Position numbers and translations under genes: made by a program | DNA from: a virus | Lineage: Duplodnaviria; Heunggongvirae; Uroviricota; Caudoviricetes | IMG/VR virus record: IMGVR_UViG_2698536672_000015 | Coordinates: 1 to 35,545 of that record | Direction: 5' to 3' (one strand) | DNA: 35,545 bases | The notes under the pieces: generated by a model | Seen by the model: only the letters and a program-made list of their open reading frames with translations | Database searches by the model: none | Told to the model about the DNA's origin: nothing | Shown here: one piece after another, positions 2,739-31,680 of the stretch | How positions within the stretch are numbered: position 1 is the stretch's first letter | Layout of the letters: the number at the start of each line of letters is the position of its first letter

Positions 2739-2760
2739 TTCTTCTACATCCTATAGCAAA

Positions 2761-5768: not shown

Positions 5769-6593
5769 TCAGGCGGTAAAAGTACCAATAAAGGTTTCTA
5801 CTTTGCTGTCTTTGAATTTCTCAACAAGCAGATCACGAAATTCGTTAGCCATTTCTTCCTGCACTGCTTCCAGCTGAATAATGCGCAGAACCAGTACAGG
5901 ACGATCGCCAGTGATAATGCTGAGGCGTAATTTAAACGGACGTTCTTGCAGGCCTTCAAACGGAACGCATTTAAATTCAAATGCCACTGGCATAATGTCT
6001 TTGGTCTTCGCTTCGACAGATTCCATCAGGGAGCGTTTGCCGCTGAAGTCATTATCTTCAAAATCAGCGGTCTGGTTTGCTTCAATCGTGATTTTACGGA
6101 CTGCCGCAGCCGCTTTTGTTGCCTGAATGGCGTCACCATTAGCATCAAAGCCCACAAGGTAGTCGGCCCAGTCTTCAATCCATTCTGCCAGTGACTTCTG
6201 GGAGTTACGCTCGCCGTTAACAGACAACAGGGCAGAGAACGGTGCTGTCTTTTTCAGTTTGAGAGTGGCGGTGTTATCTGCGTGACCTGGTTCATCAATA
6301 GTACCCAGGTTAAGCACACTGACGGCACGCATATTATCAGCATCGATAAAGCAGCGGGTGCCTTCATCTGCAAGATCTTTAGAATAACGGGTAAAATCAT
6401 CGATGCTGGCAGTGGAAAGCGCGCCACGGAAACGGAAGCGATTTAAATTAAATTTTTCCAGATCATGAATGCGGAAATTCTCAGGCAATGCCACAGCATC
6501 GGCACCAATCTTACTGATAATTTCATTAACACCCTGAGCAGAAATAAGGGCATGGATTTGATTAATTGCGGTTGCGTCTAAGTTCTGAGACAT
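5769..6593 (-). CDS. DUF2303 family protein (YfdQ-like), 274 aa
   Basis: Length and sequence are reminiscent of the CPS-53 prophage YfdQ; ATG with a GAGGA RBS. Confidence 0.6.
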
Positions 6594-6658
6594 AATAAGT
6601 CCTCACTATATAAAGATATTCAGTGATGAGATAAATAATCAGTTAATTAAGAACGATA

Positions 6659-7021
6659 TTAATGACCTGCTGCGCGTAGTTTTCCGTCAGGTTCACCGGC
6701 AAGAGTCAGTAATTGTCCCTGGTCTTCCTGCAGAATAGTCAGGCGACCACCGCGATTGACATACATCGGCGTTTCGGTGGTGTCTTCTTCGGAAATTTTC
6801 CCGCGGTTAGTCGGGCGAACATATGAGAGTTTGTGTTTGATTTTCACACGGTTCTCATCAAATGGTTCGATTTCCAGGTTGAGTGAGACCTTACCTTTGG
6901 TTTTCGTGTTCATCACACCGGAAGCGACTTCACTGAGAACTGCGCCGATTTTGGTTTCAAATACGCCGCCGTCCAGCTCCCCGATAAATGCCTGCACATC
7001 AGTACTGCGTTCGCTAGCCAT
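6659..7021 (-). CDS. YfdP-like phage protein, 120 aa
   Basis: Start placed at the internal ATG at 7021 (MASERS...) with a GAGGAG RBS; the longer 182-aa reading has an implausible Cys/Arg-rich N-terminus. Confidence 0.55.
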   Translation of the reverse strand: MASERSTDVQAFIGELDGGVFETKIGAVLSEVASGVMNTKTKGKVSLNLEIEPFDENRVKIKHKLSYVRPTNRGKISEEDTTETPMYVNRGGRLTILQEDQGQLLTLAGEPDGKLRAAGH

Positions 7022-7629
7022 TTTGCTGCTCCTCATCATATCGACCCTGCAAGGTCGGTTAGTTTCTCCACAAAACAGAGAAGAACACCTGCGGTGGCAG
7101 CCGCCCGGATGGATTGGGTTATGAGCCCGTCGTCCGGTGATGCTCTTCTCTGTTTTGTAAAAAGAGCGGTACCAGCCGGAAGTAAGTGTACAAACTGGTA
7201 CCGCCAAAGCAGTGGCTGTTGTGGTGACCGGTGCTGATCTCCGGCTTGCGGTTATTTCAGACTCTCACGGGCATTTAATTGCCCCGCCGAACAGCTCTTT
7301 TCCGCAATAGCTGCAATGTCTTTCGCGCATCAGCCTGCGCATTCACCACAACGCTGAGAGCACTTAGCCAGTTACGGCACCACACTTTGTCGCGGTTCCA
7401 TAAATGCCCTCATCGTTGCACCCTGGTCTCTTCCCAGGCGTCAAACCGGATCGCCACGCTGGTTAGGCGTCTTATCAGCATCATCATTGACTTGCACATT
7501 CCGGCTACCTGGTTTGTTTGCCCGAGCAAGGAGTGGATTGTCCCCTTTAACGTCCCCAGACCGCTAACGACGCATGTGCCATACGCCGTGTTACAACCAA
7601 ATTTTGTTAGTACCTTGTTTGTTGGTCTG

Positions 7630-7690
7630 GAAAGAAAGATAAAATGAAGTTGCGCACTATGCAAGTGTTTTTGTTGCGAGATATGCAATT
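7630..7690 (-). promoter_or_regulatory. Candidate leftward early promoter (pL-like) with two operator-like sites
   Basis: On the minus strand: -35 TTGCAT (7664-7659), 16-nt spacer, -10 TATCTT (7642-7637). Two 15-bp TTGC-N7-GCAA sites at 7650-7664 and 7672-7686 resemble sites in the cI/cro intergenic region. Confidence 0.4.
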
Positions 7691-7696
7691 TTATGG

Positions 7697-7723
7697 GAAA
7701 TGAAAAGCCACCTTCGGGTGGCT
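7697..7723 (-). terminator. Rho-independent terminator downstream of the cI gene
   Basis: AGCCACC-ttcg-GGTGGCT stem-loop, followed on the minus strand by TTTCATTTCC; 20 nt after the cI stop. Confidence 0.55.
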
Positions 7724-7743
7724 AATTGATGAGGAGGTAAGGG

Positions 7744-8436
7744 TTAATTGTGTCGCTTAAGGGTTTGTGACTGGCTGATTAAGACCTTTCCAAAGACCAT
7801 AAACCGGTGTTCATTTTCGCTGGTAATTCCCCATTCACGGTAAATCTGGTTATCAGAAATCACCAGTAGTTTGTCAGGTATCATTTGCAGTCGTTTAACA
7901 TAAATTTTATCATCAAAACCAAATACATAGATACCATCTCCATCAAACTGATTGATACTGACATCAACGAAGATGAGATCTCCTGGCTCAATGGTTGGAC
8001 ACATACTGTCCCCACGAACGTTGATAACTTTAATGTGATTGGCTGGTCGTCCGCCAAACATCGATACAGCATTATCAGTTCTGTATTCAATGGCATGAAT
8101 CACATCAATGACATCACCGCCCTGGATAAGGCCATTTCCCGCACTGGCACTGACATCCAGCATTTCAATACGGAATACATCCTTCACCTGCGCAACATCC
8201 TCACTAATACTGTTTTTACATACAGTATTACTTTTGAAGTCTGAGGTAAAGAGATCAGCAATATCAACACCTAAGCTCCTGGCAATATTACTCAGAGCTT
8301 GTTCAGTGAATTGTTTCTGCTTACCTGTTTCCAGGCGCGAAATATTCGCCGCATCCACTCCTATTGCTTCAGCGAGATCGGCGATTTTCATGTTCTTCGC
8401 CTGGCGAAGTTGTCTGACTCGATTTCCTATGTTCAT
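7744..8436 (-). CDS. cI: CI-like prophage repressor: N-terminal HTH plus C-terminal S24 LexA-like peptidase domain, 230 aa
   Basis: HTH segment IADLAEAIGVDAANISRLETG; Ala-Gly (SASAGNG) candidate cleavage site; catalytic Ser (GDSM) and Lys (VKRL); divergent from the cro-like gene. Confidence 0.85.
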   Translation of the reverse strand: MNIGNRVRQLRQAKNMKIADLAEAIGVDAANISRLETGKQKQFTEQALSNIARSLGVDIADLFTSDFKSNTVCKNSISEDVAQVKDVFRIEMLDVSASAGNGLIQGGDVIDVIHAIEYRTDNAVSMFGGRPANHIKVINVRGDSMCPTIEPGDLIFVDVSINQFDGDGIYVFGFDDKIYVKRLQMIPDKLLVISDNQIYREWGITSENEHRFMVFGKVLISQSQTLKRHN

Positions 8437-8533
8437 GCGTTTATTACATTTCTTTATTGCGCGTTAAGCAAATCAACTTGCGCAAAATATTTGCGTGAAA
8501 TAATATGCTCATCACGCAATATGTGGAGGTTAT
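8437..8533. promoter_or_regulatory. Immunity-region operator/promoter region between cI and cro
   Basis: Divergent intergenic region with repeated TTGCG(C/T)G half-sites at 8457, 8478 and 8492 and CACGCAA at 8514; TTGCGCGTTAAGCAA has TTGC-N7-GCAA symmetry; CGCAAA-ata-TTTGCG is a perfect inverted repeat. Confidence 0.55.
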
Positions 8534-8794
8534 ATGCAATCACCATTACGAAATGTGCGTAAGGCGCACGGGCTTACTTTGCAGCATGTTGCTGCGGGCG
8601 TTCAGGTTAATCCAGCAACGCTGAGTCGTATTGAGAGACTGGAACAAATTCCATCTATCGATCTTGCAGAGCGTCTGGCCAATTTTTTTAAGGGAGAAAT
8701 CAGCGAAATGCAGATTCTCTATCCTGCACGCTTTCAATCTAGTCAAAACCGGAATGAGTTAAAACCACAGGAACAGGAGGTAAGCCGTGGGTAA
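8534..8794 (+). CDS. cro: Cro-like HTH regulator (XRE family), 86 aa
   Basis: HTH segment LTLQHVAAGVQVNPATLSRIE; GGAGG RBS; divergent from cI. Confidence 0.6.
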   Translation: MQSPLRNVRKAHGLTLQHVAAGVQVNPATLSRIERLEQIPSIDLAERLANFFKGEISEMQILYPARFQSSQNRNELKPQEQEVSRG

Positions 8795-9338
8795 GCATCA
8801 CTGGAAAGTGGAAAAACAACCTGAGTGGTACGTGAAAGCTATCAGAAAAACTATCGCGGCATTGCCAGGTGGTTACGCTGAAGCTGCTGACTGGCTGGAT
8901 GTAACAGAGAACGCATTATTTAACCGCCTTCGTGCCGATGGCGATCAGTTTTTTCCGTTGGGATGGGCAATGGTTTTACAGCGTGCGGCTGGTACTCACC
9001 ACATTGCGGATGCTGTCGCACAGTCTGCTGGTGGGGTGTTTGTATCACTTCCAGAAATTGAGGAAGTAGAGAACGCTGATATCAACCAACGTCTACTGGA
9101 AGTTATTGAACAGATCGGGAGTTACTCAAAGCAGATTCGTTCGGCAATCGAAGACGGGGTAGTGGAGCCACATGAGCAGACAGCAATTAATGATGAGTTG
9201 TATCTGTCGATTTCGAAGCTCCAGGAACATGCGGCACTGGTCTACAAAATTTTCTGCGTTCCAGAAAAGAGTGACGCCCGCGAGTGTGCAGCTCCGGGCG
9301 TCGTGGCGTTTTGTGTCTGTGGAGAAACTAACGCATGA
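8787..9338 (+). CDS. Putative CII-analogue regulatory protein, possibly YdaT-like, 183 aa
   Basis: Position immediately after cro; family assignment is from memory of the cro-like/YdaT gene pairs in lambdoid prophages and is not verified. Confidence 0.35.
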   Translation: MGKHHWKVEKQPEWYVKAIRKTIAALPGGYAEAADWLDVTENALFNRLRADGDQFFPLGWAMVLQRAAGTHHIADAVAQSAGGVFVSLPEIEEVENADINQRLLEVIEQIGSYSKQIRSAIEDGVVEPHEQTAINDELYLSISKLQEHAALVYKIFCVPEKSDARECAAPGVVAFCVCGETNA

Positions 9339-9483
9339 ACAGTTTAACGGCAAATAACCGTTGGTCGCAACAGCTGGTGGTCCGCGTGGCTGAACACCTG
9401 TTGTTACGGCATGAATGCAGATTACCAAATCACCTGCCTGTAAGTAACCACAGAGAACTTTACCTGACTGTGGGGGGCGAGTT

Positions 9484-9663
9484 GTGCAGGAACTTAACCG
9501 CTGGTTTCGTGACGGAAGAGGACTTTATGTTCATGTTATTCGTTGGGAGCCAGAAACACAGCGCGTTATCTATCTTCGCAAAGACTACCCGCATGAGTGC
9601 TTTAGTCCTTTGTGGAAATTCAGGCGTGATTTTGTTGAGTGTGAAGGACCACCAGCACATTGA
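9484..9663 (+). CDS. Candidate small protein, 59 aa, GTG start (just below the 60-aa ORF-track cutoff)
   Basis: GTG at 9484 preceded by GGGGGG (spacer 6); translation VQELNRWFRDGRGLYVHVIRWEPETQRVIYLRKDYPHECFSPLWKFRRDFVECEGPPAH looks like a folded protein, unlike the overlapping frame of the long ORF. Confidence 0.35.
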   Translation: MQELNRWFRDGRGLYVHVIRWEPETQRVIYLRKDYPHECFSPLWKFRRDFVECEGPPAH

Positions 9664-9937
9664 TTCTGCCATTCCGGGACGTTACACTGTTCAGGCACCT
9701 TATAAAGCGGGTGCCGGGATTGGCGTCCTGGAATTGCATACGGCGACAATTGGCGCGTTAGCGTCTTTTTTGTTGCTACAACTCAGCTATACCCAAATTA
9801 TGGTGGGCTGGGTGGGGGCACCGAAAGGTGCGCCGGTTTCCGTATGCGCCGGTTACGCCAACCCTGCTCAGTTCACCACCAGCGAAATTGGCGTTTCCGG
9901 TGGTGGAAGTTATCCATTGCATACGGAGGCTGCCATC

Positions 9938-10483
9938 ATGGCTACGATCCCTGCCTTAGTACAACCTGAACTTTGCATTATTGCAGACAAAGTTGTTACT
10001 TCTTCTCTGGCTGTTGCTAGTTATTTCGGCAAACAACACAAAAATGTCATTCAAAAAATTGCGTCTCTTGAATGCTCTGCCGAATTTACTGAGCTGAATT
10101 TCCAGCTCAGTGAGTACATCGACGCATCAGGCCGCAAACTACCTTGCTATCAAATAACCCGCGACGGCTTTGCGTTTCTTGCTATGGGTTTCACGGGTAA
10201 ACGTGCTGCCCAGTTCAAAGAGGCATATATCAATGCCTTTAACCAGATGGAGAAACAGCTTTCAAAACCCTCTGTACCGAGCGACGTTGCACATAACGCC
10301 AGCATTCTCTATTCCTACATTTCATCAATTCATCAGGTCTGGCTGCAGCAGCTTTATCCTATGTTGGCAAAAGCCGAATCTCCGCTGGCTGTTAGCTTGT
10401 ATGACTATATTAATGATGCTTCGGCGCTGGCCTGCCTCATAAATTTGTCGCTGAACCCTTCAGAGGTAAGGGGGCGCAAATGA
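9938..10483 (+). CDS. Rha-family phage regulatory protein, 181 aa
   Basis: Rha-like domain begins directly at MATIPALVQPELCIIADKVVTSSLAVASYFGKQHKNV; a GGAGG RBS sits 8 nt upstream of the ATG at 9938. The ORF track extends this frame back to 9335, which I regard as non-genic. Confidence 0.65.
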   Translation: MATIPALVQPELCIIADKVVTSSLAVASYFGKQHKNVIQKIASLECSAEFTELNFQLSEYIDASGRKLPCYQITRDGFAFLAMGFTGKRAAQFKEAYINAFNQMEKQLSKPSVPSDVAHNASILYSYISSIHQVWLQQLYPMLAKAESPLAVSLYDYINDASALACLINLSLNPSEVRGRK

Positions 10484-10704
10484 TCCGGAATATTTTCAAA
10501 CGGTTTACCAATCAGACTTTCCGTTGTCCTCGTCCGGGTCAGTGGTACACCACACCTGCAGGGCATGTTCTACGTGTTAGCCTGGTTGACCGTGAATGTC
10601 AGAAGGTGATTTGTGAACCGCTGGGCCGTAATTACCGCGTCAGTATGCCGCTTATAGCCTTTCGCTCCGGAAAAAACATGAAGCATCTCGGAGGTGCAGC
10701 ATGA
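10480..10704 (+). CDS. Hypothetical small phage protein, 74 aa
   Basis: ATGA coupling with the Rha gene; operon context. Confidence 0.5.
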   Translation: MIRNIFKRFTNQTFRCPRPGQWYTTPAGHVLRVSLVDRECQKVICEPLGRNYRVSMPLIAFRSGKNMKHLGGAA

Positions 10705-11519
10705 GTATGGAGCTGATGGTTAAAGCGATGAAAATTCGAGTGGGTAATCCATTGCGAAAACTGGTTCTGATCAAGCTGGCTGATAATGCCAGTGATCAGG
10801 GTGAGTGCTGGCCCAGCTACCAGCATATTGCTGACCAGTGCGAGATTAGCAAACGTTCTGTGATGAATCATATTGCGGCCCTTTGTGAGTCCGGGCTGGT
10901 AAAAAAAGTCACCCGGAAAGGTGAAAAAGGTAACTCAAGTAATATCTATCTCCTTCATCTTGATGGTGCAGGAGATTCACTAGGGGGTAGTGCAAATGAT
11001 TCACTATCTGGTGCAGCAAATTCACCAGGTAGTGCAGGAGTTGCACTTGGGGGTAGTGCAGGAGATTCACCCAGAACCAGTCACTCTTTTGAACCAGTCA
11101 AAGAACCAGTCAATGAACCAATAGCTGTTGGTGAATCTGCTGATGAGTCTGTGCGAGTTCGTTCAAACCGACCGGAATACTCTCCGGAGTTTGAGCAGGC
11201 ATGGCTGGCATACCCCAAACGTGCTGGTGGCAATTCAAAATCTGCAGCCTTCAAAGCCTGGAAAGCCCGTTTGAATGAGGGGGTAAAACCCGAAACCATG
11301 CTGGAAGGTGTGAAACGCTACGCGGGCTGGGTATCTGCGATGGGTAACAGCGGCACACAATTTGTGAAACAGGCTGTCACGTTCTTTGGTCCGGATCGTC
11401 ATTTCGAAGAATCCTGGGAAGTTCCTGCGGTATCTGCAGCCAGACGCGAGGCCCCGTACTTCAAAGCCAGTTACGACAACGTGGACTACAGCCAGATCCC
11501 GGCAGGATTCAGGGGGTAA
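10701..11519 (+). CDS. Putative replication initiation protein: N-terminal winged-helix domain, internal iteron-encoded Gly/Ser/Ala repeats, 272 aa
   Basis: N-terminal HTH-like region (LVLIKLADNASDQGECWPSYQHIADQCEISKRSVMNHIAAL); tandem DNA repeats inside the gene as in lambda O/ori; position after the immunity region. Confidence 0.55.
   Translation: MSMELMVKAMKIRVGNPLRKLVLIKLADNASDQGECWPSYQHIADQCEISKRSVMNHIAALCESGLVKKVTRKGEKGNSSNIYLLHLDGAGDSLGGSANDSLSGAANSPGSAGVALGGSAGDSPRTSHSFEPVKEPVNEPIAVGESADESVRVRSNRPEYSPEFEQAWLAYPKRAGGNSKSAAFKAWKARLNEGVKPETMLEGVKRYAGWVSAMGNSGTQFVKQAVTFFGPDRHFEESWEVPAVSAARREAPYFKASYDNVDYSQIPAGFRG
10965..11070. repeat. Five tandem iteron-like repeats, candidate replication origin inside the initiator gene
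   Basis: Repeats starting at about 10965, 10988, 11010, 11030 and 11052 (GGTGCAGGAGATTCAC, GTAGTGCAAATGATTCAC, GGTGCAGCAAATTCACC, GTAGTGCAGGAGTTGCAC, GGTAGTGCAGGAGATTCAC), spaced 20-23 bp. Confidence 0.55.
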
Positions 11520-11521
11520 TC

Positions 11522-12010
11522 ATGAGTCTTTTGAATGAAGTTCAGAAATTCATTGAAGCCCATCCGGGGTGTACTTCCGGAGACATTGCGGATGCTTTTG
11601 CTGGTTACTCACGGCAGCGCGTTCTGCAGTCAGCAAGCAAGTTACGTCAGAGTGGGCGTGTGGCTCACCGTTGTGAAGGGGATACACGCAGACATTTCCC
11701 GCGCCTGACTGAGAGAGCACAGGAGCCGGAACCACAACCAGTTCGTGAAACCAGACCTGTGCGCAATTTCTATGTCGGCACTAACGATCCCCGTGTGATT
11801 TTGTGCCTGACCCGCCAGGCTGAAGAACTAGAGTCCAGGGGCTTATACCGTCGTGCTGCAACGGTGTGGATGGCGGCATTCCGTGAAAGCCACTCCCAGC
11901 CAGAACGAAACAATTTTCTGGCGCGTCGTGAGCAGTGTTTACGGAAAAGCAGCAAGCGCGCTGTATCGGGTGATGAGTGGTATCTGTCAGGGAATTACGT
12001 GGGGGGTTAA
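11522..12010 (+). CDS. Hypothetical protein with a PerC-like C-terminal region, 162 aa
   Basis: Segment AEELESRGLYRRAATVWMAAF resembles the PerC-family motif as I recall it; unverified. Confidence 0.35.
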   Translation: MSLLNEVQKFIEAHPGCTSGDIADAFAGYSRQRVLQSASKLRQSGRVAHRCEGDTRRHFPRLTERAQEPEPQPVRETRPVRNFYVGTNDPRVILCLTRQAEELESRGLYRRAATVWMAAFRESHSQPERNNFLARREQCLRKSSKRAVSGDEWYLSGNYVGG

Positions 12011-12336
12011 TGACGACGTTAACTCAATGCCAGCAGCAGGTGCTGGATATGCTGATTTCTTATCAGAAAGAACGTGGTTTCCCGCCAACCAATCAGGAGG
12101 TGGCAGCCATGCTGGGATACCGTTCGGTGAATGCAGCGGTGGAGCATCTTCGCGCACTGGAGAAAAAAGGCGTCATCACGATAAAGCGTGGCGTGGCCCG
12201 GGGTATCACGCTTCATACCACAGTGAAGGACGACGACAGCGAGGCAGCCGGGATTATCCGCGCACTGCTTGCCGGTGAGGAAAACGCCAGGCTGCGTGCA
12301 ACTCACTGGTTACATGAGAGGGGCCTGAAAGTATGA
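12010..12336 (+). CDS. LexA N-terminal DNA-binding-domain-like protein with no peptidase domain, 108 aa
   Basis: LTQCQQQVLDMLISYQKERGFPPTNQEVAAMLGYRSVNAAVEHLRALEKKGVITIKRGVARGITL parallels the LexA N-terminal winged helix; start at the ATG at 12010 with a G-rich RBS and TAATG overlap. Confidence 0.6.
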   Translation: MTTLTQCQQQVLDMLISYQKERGFPPTNQEVAAMLGYRSVNAAVEHLRALEKKGVITIKRGVARGITLHTTVKDDDSEAAGIIRALLAGEENARLRATHWLHERGLKV

Positions 12337-12722
12337 AGCTTATCCTGCCTTTCCCGCCCAGCGTGAACACTTACTGGCGACACCCTAACAAAGGGGCGTT
12401 TGCAGGTAAGAGCCTGATAAGCGCGGCGGGGCGAAAATTCCAGAGCGCGGCGTGCGCAGCAATAGTTGAGCAGTTACGTCGTCTGCCGAAACCAACGTCG
12501 GCACCTGCTTCAGTGGAGATCGTGTTGTTTCCTCCGGATAACAGGATCCGCGATCTGGATAACTATAACAAGGCGCTGTTTGACGCCCTGACCCACGCAG
12601 GTGTGTGGGAAGACGACAGCCAGGTGAAAAGAATGCTGGTGGAGTGGGGACCGGTTATCCCGGAAGGGAAGGTCGAGATCACTATCAGTAAGTACGAGAA
12701 AACGGCGGGTGCAGCCGCCTGA
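12333..12722 (+). CDS. rusA: RusA-family Holliday junction resolvase, 129 aa
   Basis: N-terminal LPFPPSVNTYWRH and RDLDNYNKALFDALTHAGVWEDDSQV match RusA motifs. Confidence 0.85.
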   Translation: MKLILPFPPSVNTYWRHPNKGAFAGKSLISAAGRKFQSAACAAIVEQLRRLPKPTSAPASVEIVLFPPDNRIRDLDNYNKALFDALTHAGVWEDDSQVKRMLVEWGPVIPEGKVEITISKYEKTAGAAA

Positions 12723-12741
12723 TTAAGAGGAGAAACGAAGT

Positions 12742-13551
12742 ATGAATAATCTGATGGTCATTGATGGTATTGAAGTTCGTCGTGATGCTTATGGACGTTA
12801 CAGCCTGAACGATCTGCATCGTGCCGCAGTAGCATCTGGTGCAAATGCCAGAACGAAGGAGCCGGGAAAGTTTCTTTCCAGCCAACAGACTGTTGAACTT
12901 GTTCAGGAATTGACCGATACCCAAAATTTGGGTGTCGGTCCGGTTAATACAGTTCGTGGTGGTCCTAAGCAGGGGAGTTATGTCTGCAAGGAACTGGTGT
13001 ATGCCTATGCAATGTGGATCAGCCCGTCATTCCATCTGAAGGTGATCCGTACTTTCGATATGGTAACCAGCGCACCGGAAAAATTATCCGGGCAGGCTGC
13101 TGACAAGATGCAGGCTGGAGTGATTCTGCTGGACTTTATGCGCAGGGAGTTAAACCTGTCTAACTCTTCAGTGCTTGGGGCCTGTCAGAAACTCCAGGAG
13201 GCTGTTGGCTTACCGAATCTGGCACCGCGCTATGCCATTGATGCTCCTGCTGACGCGCCTGATGGCTCAAGTCGCCCGACACTGTCGCTGAGTGCACTGC
13301 TGAAACAGTATGGTATCCGCCTTACGGCTAATCAGGCATATCACCAGATGTCGAAGCTGGGGATCGTCGAACAGCGCGAACGATACAGCCGTACAGCGAT
13401 TAACAACATCAAAAAATTCTGGTCGCTGACGGCGAAAGGCTGCATGTTCGGCAAGAACATCACCAGTCCTGCAAATCCGCGCGAGACGCAGCCGCACTTC
13501 TTCGAATCCCGATTCCCTGAGCTGTTAAAGCTGCTCGATACCGTTCATTGA
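12742..13551 (+). CDS. KilA-N domain protein (antirepressor/Bro-like), 269 aa
   Basis: N-terminal KilA-N-like region (MVIDGIEVRRDAYGRYSLNDLHRAA...ELVYAYAMWISPSFHLKVIRTFD); AAGAGGAG RBS. Confidence 0.55.
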   Translation: MNNLMVIDGIEVRRDAYGRYSLNDLHRAAVASGANARTKEPGKFLSSQQTVELVQELTDTQNLGVGPVNTVRGGPKQGSYVCKELVYAYAMWISPSFHLKVIRTFDMVTSAPEKLSGQAADKMQAGVILLDFMRRELNLSNSSVLGACQKLQEAVGLPNLAPRYAIDAPADAPDGSSRPTLSLSALLKQYGIRLTANQAYHQMSKLGIVEQRERYSRTAINNIKKFWSLTAKGCMFGKNITSPANPRETQPHFFESRFPELLKLLDTVH

Positions 13552-13552
13552 G

Positions 13553-14548
13553 GTGACCGTGAGAGCACTACTGACCCCTGAAATTGCCCCGCGTATGGGG
13601 ATCGTATTGTTCAGACCAGGTTCAGAGCTGATGCCCCTGTTTATGCAGGGGCGTGTCCTGCTGGAGTCTGAGCCGGAACGTTATTCATCTTTCGCCAGTG
13701 GTGCCGTTCCGGCAGCATCACAACCGCTGGCGGATGATCCTGCCGTTCGGGCCGTGTTCCGCAATGAGGCAGTGATCCGTCGTGCTGGTGGAGTGGAATG
13801 TCTTGAAAGCTGGTTACTTCGTGAAAAAGGCTGCCAGTGGCCTCATTCCGACTGGCACAGCGAGAACATGACCACAATGCGACACGCGCCGGGCGCAATC
13901 CGTCTGTGCTGGCACTGCGATAACCAGCTGCGCGATCAGTTCACGGAACGGCTGGAATCAATGGCAACGGATAACTGTGCCCGCTGGGTGTTGTCTGTTG
14001 TGCGTCGGGATCTCGGTTTTGATGACAGTCACGTTGTGACAATGCCGGAACTGTGCTGGTGGCTGATTCGTAATGATCTGGCGGATGCCTTACCGGAAAG
14101 TGCAGCCCGTAAGGCACTGAGATTACCGAAGCCTGTTGTGCCGTCTGTTACCCGGGAAAGTGACCTTGTGCCTTCGGTTCCTGCCACCAGCATCATCCAG
14201 GATAAGGCGAAAAAGGTGCTGGCGCTGAAAGTGGATCCGGAGTCGCCGGAGTCTTTTATGTTACGCCCAAAACGTCGCCGCTGGGTTAATGAAAAGTACA
14301 CGCGCTGGGTTAAGACACAGCCGTGTGCATGTTGTGGAAAGCCCGCTGATGATCCCCACCACCTGATAGGTCACGGTCAGGGTGGAATGGGAACAAAAGC
14401 GCATGACCTTTTTGTGTTGCCTTTGTGCAGAAAGCATCACGACGAGCTGCATGCGGATACCGTGGCATTTGAAGAGAAGTATGGCTCCCAGCTGGAGCTG
14501 ATATTTCGTTTTATCGATCGTGCGCTGGCAATTGGCGTGCTGGCCTGA
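13553..14548 (+). CDS. DUF968-like phage protein with C-terminal Cys/His zinc-finger-like motif, 331 aa
   Basis: C-terminal CACCGKPADDPHHL...CRKHHDELH; start codon uncertain (GTG at 13553 or 13559). Confidence 0.45.
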   Translation: MTVRALLTPEIAPRMGIVLFRPGSELMPLFMQGRVLLESEPERYSSFASGAVPAASQPLADDPAVRAVFRNEAVIRRAGGVECLESWLLREKGCQWPHSDWHSENMTTMRHAPGAIRLCWHCDNQLRDQFTERLESMATDNCARWVLSVVRRDLGFDDSHVVTMPELCWWLIRNDLADALPESAARKALRLPKPVVPSVTRESDLVPSVPATSIIQDKAKKVLALKVDPESPESFMLRPKRRRWVNEKYTRWVKTQPCACCGKPADDPHHLIGHGQGGMGTKAHDLFVLPLCRKHHDELHADTVAFEEKYGSQLELIFRFIDRALAIGVLA

Positions 14549-14565
14549 TTTTGTGGAGAAAGTTG

Positions 14566-14928
14566 ATGCGTGATATGTATGAAGTATTGGACCGCTGGGG
14601 AGCATGGGCTGCAGCAGAAAATAGTGGTGTGGACTGGCAGCCGATAGCGGCTGGTTTCAAGGGACTTTTACCACACGGTAAAAAGTCACGTCTCCAGTGT
14701 GCTGATGATGAAGGCATCATGATAGACGGTTGTGTGGCTCGGTTGCGAAAGTATAAACCAGAGGAATATGAGCTAATCATAGCTCACTTTGTTATTGGTA
14801 TCTCATTACGCACTATTGCCAAGAAGAGAAGATGTTCAGATGGCACAATTAGGAAGGAATTGCAGACTGCCATGGGGTTTATCAGCGGTGTAATAATAAC
14901 TATAAACCCCATTATGGTAGTTAATTAA
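14566..14928 (+). CDS. Q: Late-gene antiterminator Q (phage 82 / QuuD type), 120 aa
   Basis: MRDMYEVLDRWGAWAA...GFKGL...SRLQCADDEG...CSDGTIRKELQTA matches my memory of QuuD-type Q proteins; start at the ATG at 14566 (RBS GTGGAGAAAG), not the TTG at 14551. Confidence 0.8.
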   Translation: MRDMYEVLDRWGAWAAAENSGVDWQPIAAGFKGLLPHGKKSRLQCADDEGIMIDGCVARLRKYKPEEYELIIAHFVIGISLRTIAKKRRCSDGTIRKELQTAMGFISGVIITINPIMVVN

Positions 14929-15496
14929 TGTGAATCCTATCACCAAGATAGTATAGTCCAAAAAATGTTGAAACAAGCATTTGCCATGTAAGGAATAAAA
15001 AGATAATGATATAGCACCAGTTTGCTATATCATTATTCAGTATGTTTATTAGTGGTGTGATAAAAGCGTTGAAAATCACTATGCATATGCTGAGGGCAGT
15101 TAAAAATGAAAATAACATGCACAGAAATAATCTTCTGGTAAGTTTCTCTTGAGTGTCAACAATTCTACCATTTTCTTTTGTTCGTGTAATTTTAATAAAA
15201 GGAGTGCCATTAGTTCCTATCAGAGGGTAGTCAATTTGTTCTCTGTTGAAAGTGGCTATTGCTGCAAGAGCTGCTATATAAAAACCTGGCAGATTTGATA
15301 CAAATCCAGATATAGACTTAATAAAGCCGCCATCTTTTAGTAGGTCTGATGTAGGTATTTTAAATAAATAAAAGTAAAAAAAAGAAATCACAGCAAGCCC
15401 GGCAGGTGCATAAAAATCGTATGCGCACTTACCACTAATTCCCTTAATGAAAAGGTAACCAAACGGTCTAAATAAATGTGAAAATATACTAATCAT
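14921..15496 (-). CDS. Hypothetical membrane protein, 191 aa, about four TM helices; gene 2 of the AT-rich two-gene cassette
   Basis: Hydrophobic segments AGLAVISFFYFYLF, FYIAALAAIATF, LFLCMLFSFLTALSICIVIF and WCYIIIFLFLTWQMLVSTFFGLYYL; ATG 7 nt after the upstream stop with a GAGG RBS; its stop overlaps the Q stop in TTAATTAA. Confidence 0.65.
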   Translation of the reverse strand: MISIFSHLFRPFGYLFIKGISGKCAYDFYAPAGLAVISFFYFYLFKIPTSDLLKDGGFIKSISGFVSNLPGFYIAALAAIATFNREQIDYPLIGTNGTPFIKITRTKENGRIVDTQEKLTRRLFLCMLFSFLTALSICIVIFNAFITPLINILNNDIANWCYIIIFLFLTWQMLVSTFFGLYYLGDRIHIN

Positions 15497-15503
15497 ATTA
15501 GCC

Positions 15504-16532
15504 TCACATGACCTCGATAATCTTATTCACAAACTCCATGTTAATACTATCATAAGAATCCTTTAAGCGCGAAGAAAAACCATTTATTACACTCTTTTTG
15601 ATAAATGTTTTTTCCAGCCCATCCAGCCTTACATTTGAAGTTTGAAGGTCAACTTGTCTTGTGAATCCTGTCTCTGGCTCTTTGAATTTTATTTTTATTA
15701 AGTCATAACCTCCATTTTTATCTTCTTTAAAGAAGTTTGAGACAGATTTTATCCATCCAAGGACATTGTTGGGGCCATGGTTTGGTACTAAGCGTAAAGT
15801 ACTTTCTTTAGGAATAATAGCCGCGTTAACATCTGGCGCATTAATAGTTCTGTATTCATTCTTTACCAAAACGACATCAGAAAGTCCTTCTTTATTTATT
15901 TTATTGAACAAATCTTCATCTAACTTTCCAGATATATCAAAGACTGGCTTGTATAATACTTTTATTTTTTTCTTTGTTAAACTTGACACTTCATTTGTTA
16001 AAGTGTTACATGAAAAGATATCTTCATTATCTTTGGCTACGTTAAAGAGAACTTTATTCAGGAAACCATTTATTTTTGCTGTGGAAACTCCTGGTATTGG
16101 CATAAAACTCATGTCATACGTTCGCATATTTCCGTCTAGAGAAATAATCATATGAGAAGAAACTTCGTAACCTTCACCTTCCTCATGTTTTGGTGATATT
16201 TCGGTGCGAACATCTGTATTAATGTTTTTTAATACAGTAGTGCTTCCATTTTTATCTACAGCATTAATTAAAAGACCAAGATGGCTGGGTTTTTTATCGG
16301 CTCTGTTTGATAAGAATATTACATCTTGTAAAGTTAAAACTAAGTCTCCTTTTTCATAACTGTGCATCATTGCTTTACAACGTACTATTTTAGAAGCAAG
16401 TTCACGCATTGTTGGTACCGGGCAAACACAGTTCGATCTGATGCTATCATCAATTTTCTGTGTACGGTATTGTGTATCGATCGTAATAGTATGATGAGTT
16501 ATTACTCTACTGAATGCGTCCAGTGTAGCCAT
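15504..16532 (-). CDS. Hypothetical soluble protein, 342 aa, K/N/D-rich; gene 1 of the AT-rich two-gene cassette
   Basis: Long uninterrupted ORF in an AT-rich block (18 G+C in 15001-15060, 30%); no Walker, kinase or other motif I can recognise. Confidence 0.65.
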   Translation of the reverse strand: MATLDAFSRVITHHTITIDTQYRTQKIDDSIRSNCVCPVPTMRELASKIVRCKAMMHSYEKGDLVLTLQDVIFLSNRADKKPSHLGLLINAVDKNGSTTVLKNINTDVRTEISPKHEEGEGYEVSSHMIISLDGNMRTYDMSFMPIPGVSTAKINGFLNKVLFNVAKDNEDIFSCNTLTNEVSSLTKKKIKVLYKPVFDISGKLDEDLFNKINKEGLSDVVLVKNEYRTINAPDVNAAIIPKESTLRLVPNHGPNNVLGWIKSVSNFFKEDKNGGYDLIKIKFKEPETGFTRQVDLQTSNVRLDGLEKTFIKKSVINGFSSRLKDSYDSINMEFVNKIIEVM

Positions 16533-16645
16533 TTCAAAATATCCGCTTCTTTGCTGTTTTTATATGGAGAAAGTTTACATAACCACTAACGCGTACGCAA
16601 AAACTATTGTATCGTGTTAAGAGTGGTTACTTCGCCACACAGCTT
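16533..16645 (+). promoter_or_regulatory. Candidate Q-dependent late promoter region (pR'/qut-like); exact -35/-10 not resolved
   Basis: Lies between the cassette and a plus-strand terminator about 170 nt upstream of the holin, matching the lambdoid pR'-tR' layout; TTTACA at 16574-16579 is a possible -35. Confidence 0.3.
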
Positions 16646-16676
16646 AAACCCGCCGTCGAGCGGGTTTTGTCGTTTC
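16646..16676 (+). terminator. Rho-independent terminator (tR'-like) upstream of the lysis genes
   Basis: AAACCCGC-cgtcga-GCGGGTTT followed by TGTCGTTT. Confidence 0.6.
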
Positions 16677-16819
16677 TGGGGCTGGGGATTCGTTGGTCCT
16701 GGCCTATTCCGCAGTTATCCATTGGCTCGGCTTCTTTGACGTTTCCGCTTCTGATTTGCGGTACATGATGTTCCCTCAATTTGCACCTGCTGTATCAGCG
16801 AGGTGAGAGATAACTACAA

Positions 16820-17146
16820 ATGCCTCATAACCCAAATACCTGGCTGGAGTTGTTTCAGAGCTGGTGGCGTGGAGACACACCGCTGGGCGCAGTGATTATG
16901 TCGATCGTTATGGCTGGCTTGCGCATTGCCTATTTTGGCGGTGGTGGTGGCTGGAAGCGAAAAACGCTCGAGATTTTGCTCTGTGGTGCTCTGACGCTGA
17001 CTTTTGCATCCGCTCTTGAGTATGTCGGATGGCCTAAATCTCTTTCTGTTGCCATTGGTGGCGGCGTTGGGCTGATCGGTGTCGATGCTATTCGTGGGGC
17101 TGCAATGCGAGTAATCGGTAACAAATTTGGTAGCTCGAAGGAGTAA
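16820..17146 (+). CDS. Holin, 108 aa
   Basis: First gene of the lysis cassette; hydrophobic TM segments; charged C-terminus; GGTGAGAGA RBS. Confidence 0.7.
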   Translation: MPHNPNTWLELFQSWWRGDTPLGAVIMSIVMAGLRIAYFGGGGGWKRKTLEILLCGALTLTFASALEYVGWPKSLSVAIGGGVGLIGVDAIRGAAMRVIGNKFGSSKE

Positions 17147-26560: not shown

Positions 26561-26586
26561 ACCCGCCGCTGGCGGGTTTTTTATTT
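26561..26586 (+). terminator. Terminator-like hairpin upstream of the major tail gene
   Basis: CCCGCC-gct-GGCGGG followed by TTTTTTATTTT. Confidence 0.5.
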
Positions 26587-27318: not shown

Positions 27319-27690
27319 ATGTCTAAAAATATCCGCAATCTGGCACTGGCGACGATGTCTGGTTTTCGCCACAAAACAGTTGATGTTCCTGAGTGGGAAG
27401 GTACAACGGTTGTATTACGGGAACCCTCTGCAGAAGCCTGGTTACGTTGGCAGGAGATCGTTAAAACCGGAGATGATGATACACCGTTATCAGTTGCGGA
27501 GCGTGCCCGCCGAAATCTGGAAGCGGATGTTGAACTGTTCATCGATGTTCTGTGTGATACCGGGATGCAACCCGTATTTTCAGCGGATGATCGGGAGCAG
27601 GTACTTGCAGTATATGGTCCGGTACATGCGCGACTGCTTCGTCAGTCACTGGAACTGATCACTGATGCTGAAGTTATTAAAAAAAAGTAG
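27319..27690 (+). CDS. Tail assembly chaperone (gpG-like), 123 aa
   Basis: Located between the major tail and tape measure genes; ends at a slippery A AAA AAG; start at the second ATG (27319), 9 nt after AAGGAGG. Confidence 0.65.
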   Translation: MSKNIRNLALATMSGFRHKTVDVPEWEGTTVVLREPSAEAWLRWQEIVKTGDDDTPLSVAERARRNLEADVELFIDVLCDTGMQPVFSADDREQVLAVYGPVHARLLRQSLELITDAEVIKKK

Positions 27691-27992
27691 CACTTCCGGG
27701 TATTCGTTTTCTGATGATGCTGGCGCTCAGGATGGGGCGCACATTGTCAGAGTTACGCCGGGAAATGTCTGCATCGGAAATCATGATGTGGGCAGAATTT
27801 GACAGGATCAGCCCGCTGGGTGACGAGCGGGCTGATATCCGGGCTGCCCAGATAGTTTCTGCAGTTTACGGGGCGCAGGGTGTCAAAGTTCCACTGAATG
27901 AAGCGATTCTTCAGTGGGAGGTCGTTCCTGCAAATAATATTAAAGATCCGTTTACAGCGTTTGAAAATGCATTATTTGCAGCGACACAATGA
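27319..27992 (+). CDS. Tail assembly chaperone -1 frameshift fusion product (gpGT-like)
   Basis: The -1 frame is open from the slippery site (27681-27687) through 27992 (the T-like ORF listed at 27714-27992); conserved G/GT arrangement of long-tailed phages. Confidence 0.55.
27681..27687 (+). other. Programmed -1 ribosomal frameshift slippery heptamer A AAA AAG
   Basis: Heptamer sits at the last codons of the chaperone gene, immediately before its TAG stop. Confidence 0.55.
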
Positions 27993-28050
27993 TCTTCTTA
28001 CTTTACTGGATTATGATTCCGATTTTTATTAAGTAAATAAGGAGATATTG

Positions 28051-28392
28051 ATGGAAGTTATTCTTATTGCGCTAGTCCTGGGGTTAATTCCGGCTATTAT
28101 CGCGCAAAGTAAAGGGCGTTCATTTTGGGGATGGTGGATATACGGAGCCTTACTCTTTATCGTTGCCCTGGTTCATTCACTTGTAATCCAAAAAGATGAA
28201 AAAACGCATGAGCAACAAATGGTGAGCAATGGCATGAAAAAATGCCCTTACTGTGCGGAGTTGATCAAAGAAGAAGCCATTAAGTGTAAGCATTGCGGTA
28301 GTGATTTAACACATAACCCTGATAGTACCGTTTCGCAAAAAACGGATGATGAATATCTTGAAGAAGCAAGGCGTAAGGCTGGGCTTCTTTAA
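28051..28392 (+). CDS. Membrane-anchored zinc-ribbon protein, 113 aa: two N-terminal TM helices plus CPYC...CKHC; moron
   Basis: AAGGAG RBS; TM segments VILIALVLGLIPAIIAQ and WGWWIYGALLFIVALVHSLVI; Cys-x2-Cys pairs; own terminator; inserted between tail chaperone and tape measure. Confidence 0.6.
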   Translation: MEVILIALVLGLIPAIIAQSKGRSFWGWWIYGALLFIVALVHSLVIQKDEKTHEQQMVSNGMKKCPYCAELIKEEAIKCKHCGSDLTHNPDSTVSQKTDDEYLEEARRKAGLL

Positions 28393-28396
28393 AAGC

Positions 28397-28423
28397 AAAA
28401 ACCGCTTCGGCGGTTTTTTTTTG
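28397..28423 (+). terminator. Rho-independent terminator after the moron gene
   Basis: AAAACCGC-ttcg-GCGGTTTT followed by a T9 run. Confidence 0.7.
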
Positions 28424-28437
28424 ACTGGAGAACGAGA

Positions 28438-31400
28438 ATGGCGTCACTACGCGAACTGATTATAAGAATCTCGGCAAATTCGCAGTCATTCCAGTCAGAA
28501 ATTGCGCGAGCTTCACGTATGGGACAGGAGTACTACCGTACCATGCAGAACGGAGGTCGACAGTCTGCAGCTGCATCCCGTGATATGCGGCGAGCACTGG
28601 CAGAAGTGACCGAGCAGATAAATACGGCGAAGTCTTCGGCAATGAATATGGCTGGCGCATTTGCCGGTGCTTTTGCCACTGGACATCTTATATCTCTTGC
28701 GGATGAATGGAGCTCAGTAAATGCCCGTCTGAAGCAGGCCACGCAGTCCAGCGATGATTTCCAGGCATCACAGCGTGAATTAATGGCGATCAGCCAGAGA
28801 ACGGGTACTGCTTTTGCTGATAACGCCAGTCTTTTTGCTCGTTCGGCTTCTTCCATGCGGGAATATGGTTACAGGTCTGAGGAAGTACTGAAAGTTACCG
28901 AGGCCATTTCTACAGGATTGAAATTGTCCGGAGCCAGTTCTGCGGAAGCCAGCTCGGTGATCACTCAGTTCAGCCAGGCACTGGCGCAAGGGGTTCTGCG
29001 CGGTGAAGAGTTTAATTCAGTAAATGAAAGCGGTGATCGTGTTATTCGTGCTCTGGCTGCAGGAATGGGGGTTGCCCGTAAAGATCTGAAGGCAATGGCG
29101 GATGATGGAAAGCTGACCGCCGATAAGGTTGTTCCTGCACTGATTAGCCAGCTTGGTACGCTGCGGGATGAATATGCAGCCATGCCTGATACCGTATCAT
29201 CCTCTGCAACCAAAGTTGAAAACGCCTTTATGGCCTGGGTTGGTGATGCGAATGATGCCAGCGGTGCAACGAAAACGCTTACCGGAATAATGAATGGTGT
29301 TGCGAATAATATTGATACGGTTGCCACGGCGGCGGGAGCTCTGGTTGCAATTGGTGTAGCCCGATATTTTGGCAATATGGCGTCTTCTGCGGGCTCTGCA
29401 ACTGCCGGGTTAATCACTGCTGCCAGAAACGAAGTGGCTCTTGCTGAGGCACAGCTCAGAGGGACACAGATAGCAACAGCCAGAGCGCGGGCGGCATTGT
29501 ATCGTGCGCAGCAGGCGGTTGTGGCTGCCCGTGGTACAGAAAAACAGGCTGCAGCAGAAGCGAAACTGGCAACCGCACAGGCTTCACTTACCCGTAATAT
29601 TGCTGCCAGAACAGCGGCACAGGCAACGCTGAATAACGTTACGTCAGTTAGTAGTCGGTTGTTAAGCGGTGCTCTGGGGCTGGTTGGTGGTGTGCCTGGA
29701 CTTGTCATGCTGGGGGCGGCGGCCTGGTACACAATGTATCAGAACCAGGAGCAGGCCAGAGAATCAGCGCGTCAGTATGCCGCAACAATCGACGAAATTC
29801 GCCAGAAAACGTCTGCAATGTCACTTCCTGAAGCGGCAGATAATGAAGAAAAGACGCGGCAGGCTCTGGAGGAGCAGAATAGGTTAATTGACGAGCAGAA
29901 AAGTAAGATTAAATCCTTACAGGAAAAAATTGCTGGCTATCAGTATGTCCTGGCAAACCCGGGCTGGACAACCGATAACGGTTTTATGATTAACCACATG
30001 ACGTCGGTGAAAACTGTCACAGAAGGGCTTGCAGAAGCAACAAGTCAGCTGGCTGTTGAGCAGTCCCGACTTTCCGGAATGCAGGAAAAAGCCCAGTCAA
30101 TCCAGGATGTGCTTGCCGGGCTGGAAGAACGACGAGTGGTGCTGATCCGCCAACAGGCAGCGGAACAAAACAAAGCATATCAGTCATTACTGATCATGAA
30201 TGGCCAACATACCGAGTTTAATCGTCTTCTTGGGCTTGGTAATGAATTACTTCAGCAGCGACAGGGGCTGGTGAATGTACCGTTACGGCTGCCACAGGCT
30301 GCTCTGGATGATAAACAGCAGAACGCGCTGAATAACACTGAGCGAGAGCTGACCTTATCCCGTATGAAGGGGGAAGCGCGTGAGCGTACTCGTCTGGGCT
30401 ATGTAGCGGATGATCTCGGTTTTGTGGGGGATGCCTATCAGACGGCAAGGCAAACTTATATCAACAACGCGCTGGAAGCATGGCGTAACAACCAGGCGAA
30501 TAAGCTAAAGGTACGTGGTGGAAAATCGGAAGCAGAAAAAACGGAAGATGCTTATAACAGACTGATTAAACAACAAAAAGAACAAATAGCACTGGCAGGA
30601 CAGAATACTGAACTGGCTAAGATGAAATACCAGGTCAGCCAGGGCGAATTATCAACCTTATCAGAAGCGCAGAAACAAACCCTTTTACAGAATGCAGCAC
30701 TCATCGACCAGAAAAAAATTCGTGAGCAAATTGCTGCTTATGAAAGCAGCCTGGCGGACAGTAACGCCAGTGTCAGGGCATCAAATGAGGCTCAGTTGTT
30801 AGGGTATGGAGACGGAACACGAATACGTGAGCGGCTTCAGGAAATGTGGAACATCCGACAGGAGTTTGAGCAGAAAAATAATGAGTTGCTGAGACAGTAC
30901 CAGACCGGAGAAATCGAAGAAGCCCTGTGGAAACAGGAAAAAACGCTGAATGAAAAATATCTGGAGGAGCGTCTCAACGATCAGCAGGATTATTATGCAA
31001 AGGCCGATGCTTTACGCAGTAACTGGAATGCCGGGCTCAAAGAGGGGCTGACGAACTGGGCAGACAGTGCCACTGATTATTCTTCACAGGCGGCAGACGC
31101 GGTCGTTTCCACTATGGATGGTCTGGTTTCAAATATTTCCGAGGCACTGGCCGGAAACGTTGTGGACTGGAGAAACTGGGGGAGTTCGATCCTTCAGGAA
31201 GTTTCAAAAATCCTGATGAACGCGGCCATTGTTAACGGGCTGAAATCACTCTCCGGGACAATGTCGGGAGCGGGGGGATGGATTGGTAGTGTTGGCGACT
31301 GGCTTTCCGGTGCAGTAGCGAACGCAAAAGGCGGTGTTTACACATCGGCAAATCTGAGTGCTTACAGTAACACCATTGTGGATACGCCGACGTACTTTGC

Positions 31401-31680
31401 TTTTGCGAAAGGTGCCGGGCTGATGGGGGAAGCCGGACCTGAAGCTATCATGCCGCTTACGCGGGCGGCGGACGGTTCTCTTGGGGTCAGGGCTATTGGC
31501 AATGTGAATGGTGGTGGCGGATTTGTCTATTCTCCCGTGTATCACATCAGTATTCAGAATAAAGGGAGCAATGGCGAGATAGATACGCAGTCAGCCAGGG
31601 GGCTGGTGGATCTGATCGACAGCAGGGTTGTGTCAATTATGCAGTCATCACGTCGGGACGGAGGATTATGCAGTGCCTGA
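28438..31680 (+). CDS. Tail tape measure protein, 1080 aa
   Basis: Very long Ala/Gln-rich coiled-coil protein after the chaperone genes. Confidence 0.9.
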   Translation: MASLRELIIRISANSQSFQSEIARASRMGQEYYRTMQNGGRQSAAASRDMRRALAEVTEQINTAKSSAMNMAGAFAGAFATGHLISLADEWSSVNARLKQATQSSDDFQASQRELMAISQRTGTAFADNASLFARSASSMREYGYRSEEVLKVTEAISTGLKLSGASSAEASSVITQFSQALAQGVLRGEEFNSVNESGDRVIRALAAGMGVARKDLKAMADDGKLTADKVVPALISQLGTLRDEYAAMPDTVSSSATKVENAFMAWVGDANDASGATKTLTGIMNGVANNIDTVATAAGALVAIGVARYFGNMASSAGSATAGLITAARNEVALAEAQLRGTQIATARARAALYRAQQAVVAARGTEKQAAAEAKLATAQASLTRNIAARTAAQATLNNVTSVSSRLLSGALGLVGGVPGLVMLGAAAWYTMYQNQEQARESARQYAATIDEIRQKTSAMSLPEAADNEEKTRQALEEQNRLIDEQKSKIKSLQEKIAGYQYVLANPGWTTDNGFMINHMTSVKTVTEGLAEATSQLAVEQSRLSGMQEKAQSIQDVLAGLEERRVVLIRQQAAEQNKAYQSLLIMNGQHTEFNRLLGLGNELLQQRQGLVNVPLRLPQAALDDKQQNALNNTERELTLSRMKGEARERTRLGYVADDLGFVGDAYQTARQTYINNALEAWRNNQANKLKVRGGKSEAEKTEDAYNRLIKQQKEQIALAGQNTELAKMKYQVSQGELSTLSEAQKQTLLQNAALIDQKKIREQIAAYESSLADSNASVRASNEAQLLGYGDGTRIRERLQEMWNIRQEFEQKNNELLRQYQTGEIEEALWKQEKTLNEKYLEERLNDQQDYYAKADALRSNWNAGLKEGLTNWADSATDYSSQAADAVVSTMDGLVSNISEALAGNVVDWRNWGSSILQEVSKILMNAAIVNGLKSLSGTMSGAGGWIGSVGDWLSGAVANAKGGVYTSANLSAYSNTIVDTPTYFAFAKGAGLMGEAGPEAIMPLTRAADGSLGVRAIGNVNGGGGFVYSPVYHISIQNKGSNGEIDTQSARGLVDLIDSRVVSIMQSSRRDGGLCSA

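Follow-up and report, generated by a model that had tools for sequence, protein, structure and literature searches.

An accessory gene for a 113-residue protein with a predicted membrane hairpin and a Cys4 zinc ribbon is found between the tail assembly chaperone genes and the tape-measure gene of an Escherichia coli prophage, and comparison with related phages and prophages identifies this ORF as a true moron. Exclusion of superinfecting phages is the best-supported hypothesis for its function: the protein may be a prophage-expressed inner-membrane superinfection-exclusion protein, a reading to which our analysis assigns a probability of about 0.45, and a role directed at the host is a serious rival. 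Tail-operon morons that encode small inner-membrane proteins are a known kind of gene, of which the moron with a zinc ribbon is a new variant. The window referred to below is the whole stretch of viral DNA that was analysed, 35,545 nucleotides of IMG/VR record IMGVR_UViG_2698536672_000015.

The prophage and the locus

The window represents a prophage of the E. coli chromosome, the head and tail module of which is of the HK97 type. Its late region has 98% identity to the prophage of E. coli strain FDAARGOS_497, in which the counterpart of the moron carries the NCBI name 'zinc ribbon domain-containing protein' (WP_021543566.1). For the left 14.5 kb, the best-matching E. coli sequences have 97% identity and carry a site-specific integrase together with the host gene glaH; the early, left part of the window (1-16850) is mosaic relative to the FDAARGOS_497 prophage, with scattered matching blocks only. 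The features of the locus, from the chaperone genes to the tape-measure gene, are the following:

27319-27690, plus strand: tail assembly chaperone gene G, the upstream backbone gene
27681-27687, plus strand: slippery site A AAA AAG at the end of G, for a programmed -1 frameshift
Frame of 27714-27992, plus strand (G/T span 27319-27992): T, the -1 frameshift extension of G; HK97 homologues are annotated 'translated due to a -1 frameshift'
27920-27992, plus strand: mosaic 3' end of T and left junction of the insert; 27919/27920 is where similarity to phage Evi and to approximately 860 E. coli prophages ends
27989-27994, plus strand: weak -35-like hexamer ATGATC (3 of 6 positions), overlapping the TGA stop of T; GTGACA, GTGACT or TTGATA in relatives
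28012-28017, plus strand: putative -10 hexamer TATGAT (5 of 6 positions), 17 nt from the -35; TAGGAT in most relatives
28039-28044, plus strand: ribosome binding site AAGGAG, 6 nt 5' of the ATG
ATG 28051 to TAA 28390-28392, plus strand: coding sequence of the moron, 113 aa, a member of PHROG 8436
28051-28191, plus strand: predicted transmembrane helical hairpin, residues 1-47
28234-28308, plus strand: Cys4 zinc ribbon, residues 62-86, with C65, C68, C79 and C82 all invariant
28345-28380, plus strand: predicted C-terminal helix with the DEEYLEEARRKA motif, residues 99-110, specific to the subfamily in the slot between T and the tape-measure gene
28397-28422, plus strand: hairpin and T9 run, resembling an intrinsic terminator, a backbone feature of the junction between T and the tape-measure gene that is common to moron-less relatives
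28438-31680, plus strand: tape-measure protein gene, 1080 aa, the downstream backbone gene, with 55% identity to the HK97 tape-measure protein

The location that the original prediction had given for the moron, between chaperone and tape-measure genes, is thus the correct one, with G and its frameshifted form upstream and the 1080-residue tape-measure protein downstream, and the AAGGAG ribosome binding site that it had described is found as well. The frame of T continues from 27687, so that its product is a G-T fusion like in HK97 and lambda, and the slippery A-run is identical in Evi. An antisense ORF of 55 aa at 28280-28447 was considered and is without support. Elsewhere, the prophage has a complete lysis cassette of the lambda type, for which reason a holin role of the moron protein was rejected.

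An optional gene in the tail operon

That the gene has been inserted as a moron, as claimed from the sequence of the window at the outset, is borne out by close relatives in which the same two backbone genes are adjacent. Nine phage records, including Evi and phi467, have approximately 88% identity to the window in both flanks and lack the moron, and their flank-to-flank span is approximately 1,201 bp as compared to 1,601 bp in the window. In Evi, the tape-measure gene lies directly 3' of T; in its alignment with the window, similarity decays from 27920 and a gap extends from 27993 to about 28399. The prophages of E. coli A20 and JJ1886 have T, 46 nt and the tape-measure gene, again with no moron between them. 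The T gene was matched in 903 of 5,426 complete E. coli genomes, only 44 of these 903 carry the cassette, and partial matches in the sampled E. coli genomes end at the same position as the similarity to Evi, 27919/27920. The base composition of the insert deviates from that of its surroundings: the AT-richness noticed originally (43% G+C in 28051-28110) was measured as a G+C content of 0.433, with 0.418 for the ORF and 0.39 for the whole insert (27920-28398), as compared to 0.506 for G/T and 0.511 for the tape-measure gene; 8.8% of the 342-nt windows from position 8000 to the end of the window have a G+C content equal to or below that of the ORF. Of the features by which Juhala and Hendrix defined morons, flanking genes that are adjacent in relatives, a deviating base composition and a terminator downstream are found at this locus; for a promoter of its own there is a candidate (see below), and expression from the repressed prophage is a prediction.

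An essential, conserved component of the tail or its assembly might be expected inside the tail cluster and at a constant position, and the order of T, the gene in question and the tape-measure gene is indeed kept in 80 of the 80 closest viral loci. However, the gene is absent from Evi, phi467, HK97 and approximately 95% of related E. coli prophages, and being optional among relatives it cannot be an essential tail component, the very role that the original prediction had named as incompatible with its own view of the gene. A spurious ORF is contradicted by thousands of homologues and by pairwise dN/dS values of 0.03-0.10, from which the gene can be regarded as functional and under purifying selection. 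Comparative data thus refute both of these explanations, and their probability is next to nil.

A terminator of the backbone

Downstream of the moron, a hairpin (AAAAACCGC-TTCG-GCGGTTTTT) spans 28397-28418 and overlaps with a T9 run at 28414-28422. Its minimum free energy is -11.7 kcal/mol, with a z of -2.05 in comparison to shuffled sequences, and G-C pairs make up only 4 of the 9 pairs of the stem; an Rfam search of 27600-28700 gave sub-threshold matches alone, on this hairpin. The moron had been described as carrying its own terminator, and of this claim the presence of hairpin and T9 run holds but the ownership does not: the identical hairpin AACCGCTTCGGCGGTTTTTTTT lies 8 nt past the T stop codon in the moron-less Evi, A20 and JJ1886, and every moron-bearing relative has a hairpin with a T-run before the tape-measure start. 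As moron-less relatives possess the hairpin, the cassette has entered upstream of a terminator of the backbone, which now serves the cassette. In HK97, putative terminators are annotated at equivalent junctions of the late operon. A second, G+C-rich hairpin with a T-run (ACCCGCCGCTGGCGGGT TTTTT, 26561-26577) lies just 5' of the major tail protein gene and also corresponds to 'putative terminators' at the equivalent HK97 junctions. Such hairpins punctuate the whole late operon of the HK97 type.

The protein and its family

The two transmembrane helices and the C-terminal CxxC...CxxC ribbon of the original prediction are well reflected in the protein, which has two hydrophobic segments (residues 2-20 and 25-47) and, with C65-x2-C68...C79-x2-C82, a match to Pfam PF13248 Zn_ribbon_3 of 34.6 bits at a cut-off of 27. 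An AlphaFold2 model with a mean pLDDT of 81.5 has helices at residues 2-10, 12-20 and 25-59, a zinc knuckle at 62-86, a disordered stretch at 87-98 and a last helix at 99-110. Over residues 1-111, the protein matches positions 1-108 of the 110-position profile of PHROG 8436, a family of unknown function (E 3.2e-51). Searches of Pfam, NCBIfam and PADLOC returned nothing meaningful outside the zinc ribbon, a Foldseek search of the model against the PDB returned 25-residue zinc knuckles alone (all E>0.3), and a sequence profile search of the PDB gave ribbons of the bL32 type alone (E>0.1). The homology and structure searches that had been proposed along with the original prediction have thus supplied the assignments to Zn_ribbon_3 and PHROG 8436, and neither a solved structure nor an annotated family that reaches past the ribbon.

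The family is large. A word-indexed search found 1,761 homologues, and an exhaustive profile search gave 3,751 clusters at 50% identity with E<=1e-10, 304 of them with E<=1e-30. Residues 1-90 form the conserved core, in which G11, P14, A15, A18, K21, G22, R23, F25, W28, W29, Y31, G32 and the four cysteines are conserved throughout the family, and the C-terminus is variable, being absent, a short DEEYLEEARRKA helix as in the window, or a domain of approximately 90 aa. In phages, the family is a recurrent insert of the tail operon and mostly lies beside the tape-measure gene. Three sequence subfamilies occupy the slot between chaperone and tape-measure genes in enterobacterial or Pseudomonas phages. 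In the 80 closest viral loci, the moron mostly has 65-71% identity, with values down to 47% for T and 37% for the tape-measure protein, and by the criterion of ORF length 79 of these loci have the gene directly 5' of an ORF of at least 500 aa. A subfamily of approximately 36% identity (PHROG 8032, from Klebsiella) lies directly 5' of an ORF of 800-1,190 aa in 72 of 78 loci, a form of 132 aa directly precedes the tape-measure gene in a genome of Raoultella terrigena, and in Pseudomonas phage vB_Pae_U7 the slot between chaperone and tape-measure genes contains a homologue of 103 aa that is not annotated (L092:3468-3779). The vB_Pae_U7 record instead has annotations of short ORFs, including one on the other strand, and is therefore probably mis-annotated. 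Long forms of 178 aa with an extra C-terminal helical domain (L232-L237) are found at other tail junctions, namely between L and K in Edwardsiella and between K-like and I-like genes in Serratia prophages. No experimental work on any member of this hairpin and zinc-ribbon family was found in the literature, which also does not mention the accessions and PHROG identifiers.

A promoter-like element upstream of the moron

The original description of the locus had overlooked a promoter-like element that is added here. In an anchored comparison of 47 distinct, diverged intergenic sequences between T and the ORF, from viral contigs and genomes, a motif is conserved that consists of (G/T)TGAC(A/T), 17 nt, and TAGGAT (within tATTAgGATT). 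Conservation in these sequences is limited to the two hexamers and the distance between them, with free divergence of spacer and 5' UTR; in many cases the -35 extends over the T stop codon, and 27-34 nt separate the end of the -10 from the ATG. On this comparative evidence, the element is a candidate for an autonomous sigma-70 promoter of the moron, with a predicted transcription start near 28024 in the window. A consensus scan misses the window's version, ATGATC-17-TATGAT, as its -35 is too weak for the scan threshold. The promoters that the scan did report, TTGAAA-18-CACAAT (27961-90) and a site on the minus strand (28037-28010), were dismissed, since two hits are at chance level (3.4 expected).

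Just past the T stop, TCTTCTTA (27993-28000) can pair with the sequence of the ribosome binding site, TAAGGAGA (28038-28045). In the window, the predicted probability that this site is unpaired is 0.17 in the late read-through RNA vs. 0.44 in the short RNA; over 55 distinct loci the values are 0.39 vs. 0.46, with the effect seen in 38 of the 55. Masking of the ribosome binding site in the late transcript was therefore dropped as a mechanism, being weak and inconsistent across these loci. The 5' UTR TTAAGTAAA..AGGAG (28028-28044 in the window) and the last T codons GCAGCGACACAATGA resemble the flanks of HK97 gene 15 (L004:1680-1700), a likeness which hints at cargo ORFs that are swapped within a shared regulatory scaffold.

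Proposed mechanism and known exclusion proteins

We infer expression in the lysogen, membrane topology and exclusion function as follows. A cassette of putative promoter, ribosome binding site and the 113-aa ORF has been inserted between T and the pre-existing hairpin terminator, in the slot of HK97 gene 15. In the lysogen, the sigma-70 promoter, with its -35 over the T stop and its -10 at 28012-17, would give rise to a monocistronic RNA of approximately 400 nt that would be stopped by the backbone hairpin at 28397-28422, leaving the tape-measure gene silent, and in lytic growth the antiterminated late transcript would read through this hairpin. The protein would insert into the inner membrane as a two-helix hairpin, with the invariant SKGRSFxxWW turn at one membrane face and with the zinc ribbon and the acidic C-terminal helix in the cytoplasm, and the genome entry of a superinfecting siphophage would then be blocked at the tape-measure-dependent step at the inner membrane, similar to what HK97 gp15 and T4 Imm do.

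HK97 gene 15 is the first moron that was described (Juhala 2000, Cumby 2012, reviewed in PMC3594210). The prophage expresses its product, which resides in the inner membrane and blocks the DNA entry of HK97 and HK75, and as the block is relieved by a swap of the tail region between HK97 and HK022, exclusion depends on the tail region of the phage (PMC3594210). The moron of the window shares its slot, between the genes for GT chaperone and tape-measure protein in a tail operon of the HK97 type; both genes are followed by a hairpin terminator and absent from close relatives, and both products are small inner-membrane proteins, as predicted in the case of the window. Both also appear to originate from small cellular membrane proteins, from YebO in the case of gp15 and from a cross-phylum hairpin and ribbon family in the case of the moron. 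Unlike the window protein, gp15 has only 62 aa and no zinc ribbon, exclusion of HK97 and HK75 has been shown for gp15 only, and a BLASTP comparison of the two proteins gave no similarity (E 5 over 4 residues).

The likeness to T4 Imm lies in the hairpin. Imm and the Imm_superinfect family share with the window protein a helical hairpin of the type P-x-I-I-A-x-x-(K/R)-G and a Trp-rich second helix, but the loop of the window protein is 10 residues shorter, the profile similarity is weak, and T4 Imm lacks a ribbon and is the product of an early gene in a virulent phage. Binding of T4 Imm to the tape-measure protein gp29 has been reported, as well as impaired activity upon the exchanges R33A and W50A (2026 preprint, bioRxiv 10.64898/2026.03.06.709160); these two residues align with the invariant K21 and W28 in both the hhalign and the BLASTP alignments. 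With hhalign, the family hairpin aligned with Imm hairpins including that of T4 Imm at P 1.4e-4, with only 52% probability, over 42 columns with a 10-residue gap (reversed controls P>0.2), and an HMM of Imm hairpins detected 80 of 210 family hairpins at E<0.01 vs. 0 of 210 reversed ones. In Pseudomonas phage YMC11/02/R656, the same slot between chaperone and tape-measure genes encodes gp065, a protein of 195 aa in which an Imm_superinfect domain is followed by Zn_ribbon_3. The order of hairpin and Cys4 ribbon is that of the window protein, gp065 also matches PHROG 8436 (E 1.7e-18), and BLASTP aligns it with the window protein at E 3e-14 over hairpin and ribbon, a score that is partly driven by the ribbon and includes a 10-residue gap in the hairpin loop. 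Pfam PF14373 Imm_superinfect recognises T4 Imm (E 7e-16) and gp065 (E 1.6e-18), and does not match the window protein even at E<=1. As the Pfam Imm model itself does not match, the likeness to Imm is suggestive and not conclusive. Among generic Imm_superinfect genes, 1 of 56 lies beside a tape-measure gene.

Tab and Tai are likewise encoded by late-operon morons and act against the tails of incoming phages, the target of Tab of JBD26 being their tape-measure protein (PMC10884400), and Tai homologues are mostly found at phage moron loci (PMC11364771). Tab, however, blocks tail assembly and not DNA entry, requires an anti-Tab, and is encoded between the terminase genes, and Tai genes mostly lie 5' of the packaging module. 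No sequence relation of the window protein to Tab or Tai was found.

Cellular relatives and alternative functions

The module of hairpin and ribbon is also spread over many phyla, where MAGs and genomes contain it with 33-59% identity, and only 5 of the 47 full-length loci of this cross-phylum set have a large ORF downstream. A copy in a Bacillota MAG (58% identity over hairpin and ribbon) has genes of a threonyl-tRNA synthetase, a chemoreceptor and a PAS protein as neighbours, Fic and ThiC are encoded near a copy in Sphingomonas, and in five MAGs the gene is found directly 3' of an SPFH/Band_7 gene (Pfam E 3e-33). These SPFH-adjacent loci (L279:5100-6258, L285, L286, L290 and L293) come from Nitrospirota (Nitrospiraceae, Thermodesulfovibrionales), Ignavibacteriales and Desulfobacterales and encode homologues of 86-109 aa and an SPFH protein of approximately 285 aa. 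Small membrane partners of the NfeD type are known to be encoded beside SPFH/Band_7 genes, but the window protein has no NfeD domain. Judged by this gene order, SPFH and the hairpin and ribbon gene look like a conserved cellular pair, and with the module spread over many phyla the phage genes look co-opted from a cellular membrane protein.

These relatives carry the most serious alternative, namely that the moron serves lysogenic conversion or host physiology by docking on a conserved membrane machine of the host, for example an SPFH scaffold with a protease, and that any effect on phages is indirect or absent. The wide distribution of the module, the non-phage neighbourhoods of the cellular copies that were checked, and the SPFH genes directly upstream in the five MAGs agree with such a role, as does the observation that the hairpin turn is the most conserved part of the protein and not a variable specificity region: its strong conservation suggests a conserved cellular partner and not fast-evolving tape-measure proteins. 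The cellular conservation is, however, also compatible with exclusion via a host entry factor in place of direct tape-measure binding. Phage copies have no SPFH neighbour, a purely host-directed role would not explain the placement in the tail operon, mostly by the tape-measure gene, and HK97 gp15 derives from the cellular YebO family, too, yet is an exclusion protein (PMC3594210). A host-directed role is on these grounds to be taken seriously, but is rather unlikely.

Another alternative is a late lytic accessory protein, made mainly from the antiterminated late transcript and acting on the membrane in late exclusion, in the protection of progeny from injecting lysing cells, or in the tuning of lysis. 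As the moron lies in the late operon and on the same strand, it will be transcribed late, and the weak -35 of the window and read-through of the backbone terminator by the late transcript are well in line with this. The promoter motif, on the other hand, is conserved at fixed spacing over diverged loci, the ribosome binding site is predicted to be paired in the window's read-through RNA, and lysis is already provided for by the prophage's own cassette, all of which makes a mainly late function clearly improbable. Even less can be said for abortive infection by a toxic membrane effector, in which the ribbon would sense a component of the incoming phage and the hairpin would oligomerise and depolarise the membrane. 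A small prophage-borne protein with two transmembrane helices and a predicted cytoplasmic, sensor-like domain could be imagined to work in this way, and PADLOC gave weak matches to HEase (E 5e-5) and LmuB (E 3e-3) over the zinc-ribbon region. These matches, however, are to unrelated large proteins in the ribbon region, no partner gene is present, and the cellular relatives resemble housekeeping genes, so that this function is very unlikely.

Implications

With exclusion as the preferred reading, it may be speculated, albeit with considerable doubt, that proteins of hairpin and zinc ribbon form a large, uncharacterised, Imm-like class of exclusion proteins directed against the tape-measure protein or the DNA-entry step, that they have been captured repeatedly from an SPFH-associated cellular module by temperate siphophages of Enterobacterales and Pseudomonas, under a minimal promoter and a backbone terminator, and that the junction between chaperone and tape-measure genes is a general docking site for exclusion cargo beside the gene of its likely target. 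The cassette in any case illustrates how a moron makes use of a terminator of the backbone and how a phage can co-opt a cellular membrane module. If the exclusion function is true, thousands of unannotated 'zinc ribbon domain-containing' prophage proteins would receive a function, and the idea derived from gp15 and Imm, that small inner-membrane proteins interfere with the tape-measure-mediated DNA entry, would gain a new fold variant. This would also aid the prediction of phage host range and of prophage-mediated resistance in E. coli, Salmonella, Klebsiella and Pseudomonas, which is of relevance for phage therapy.
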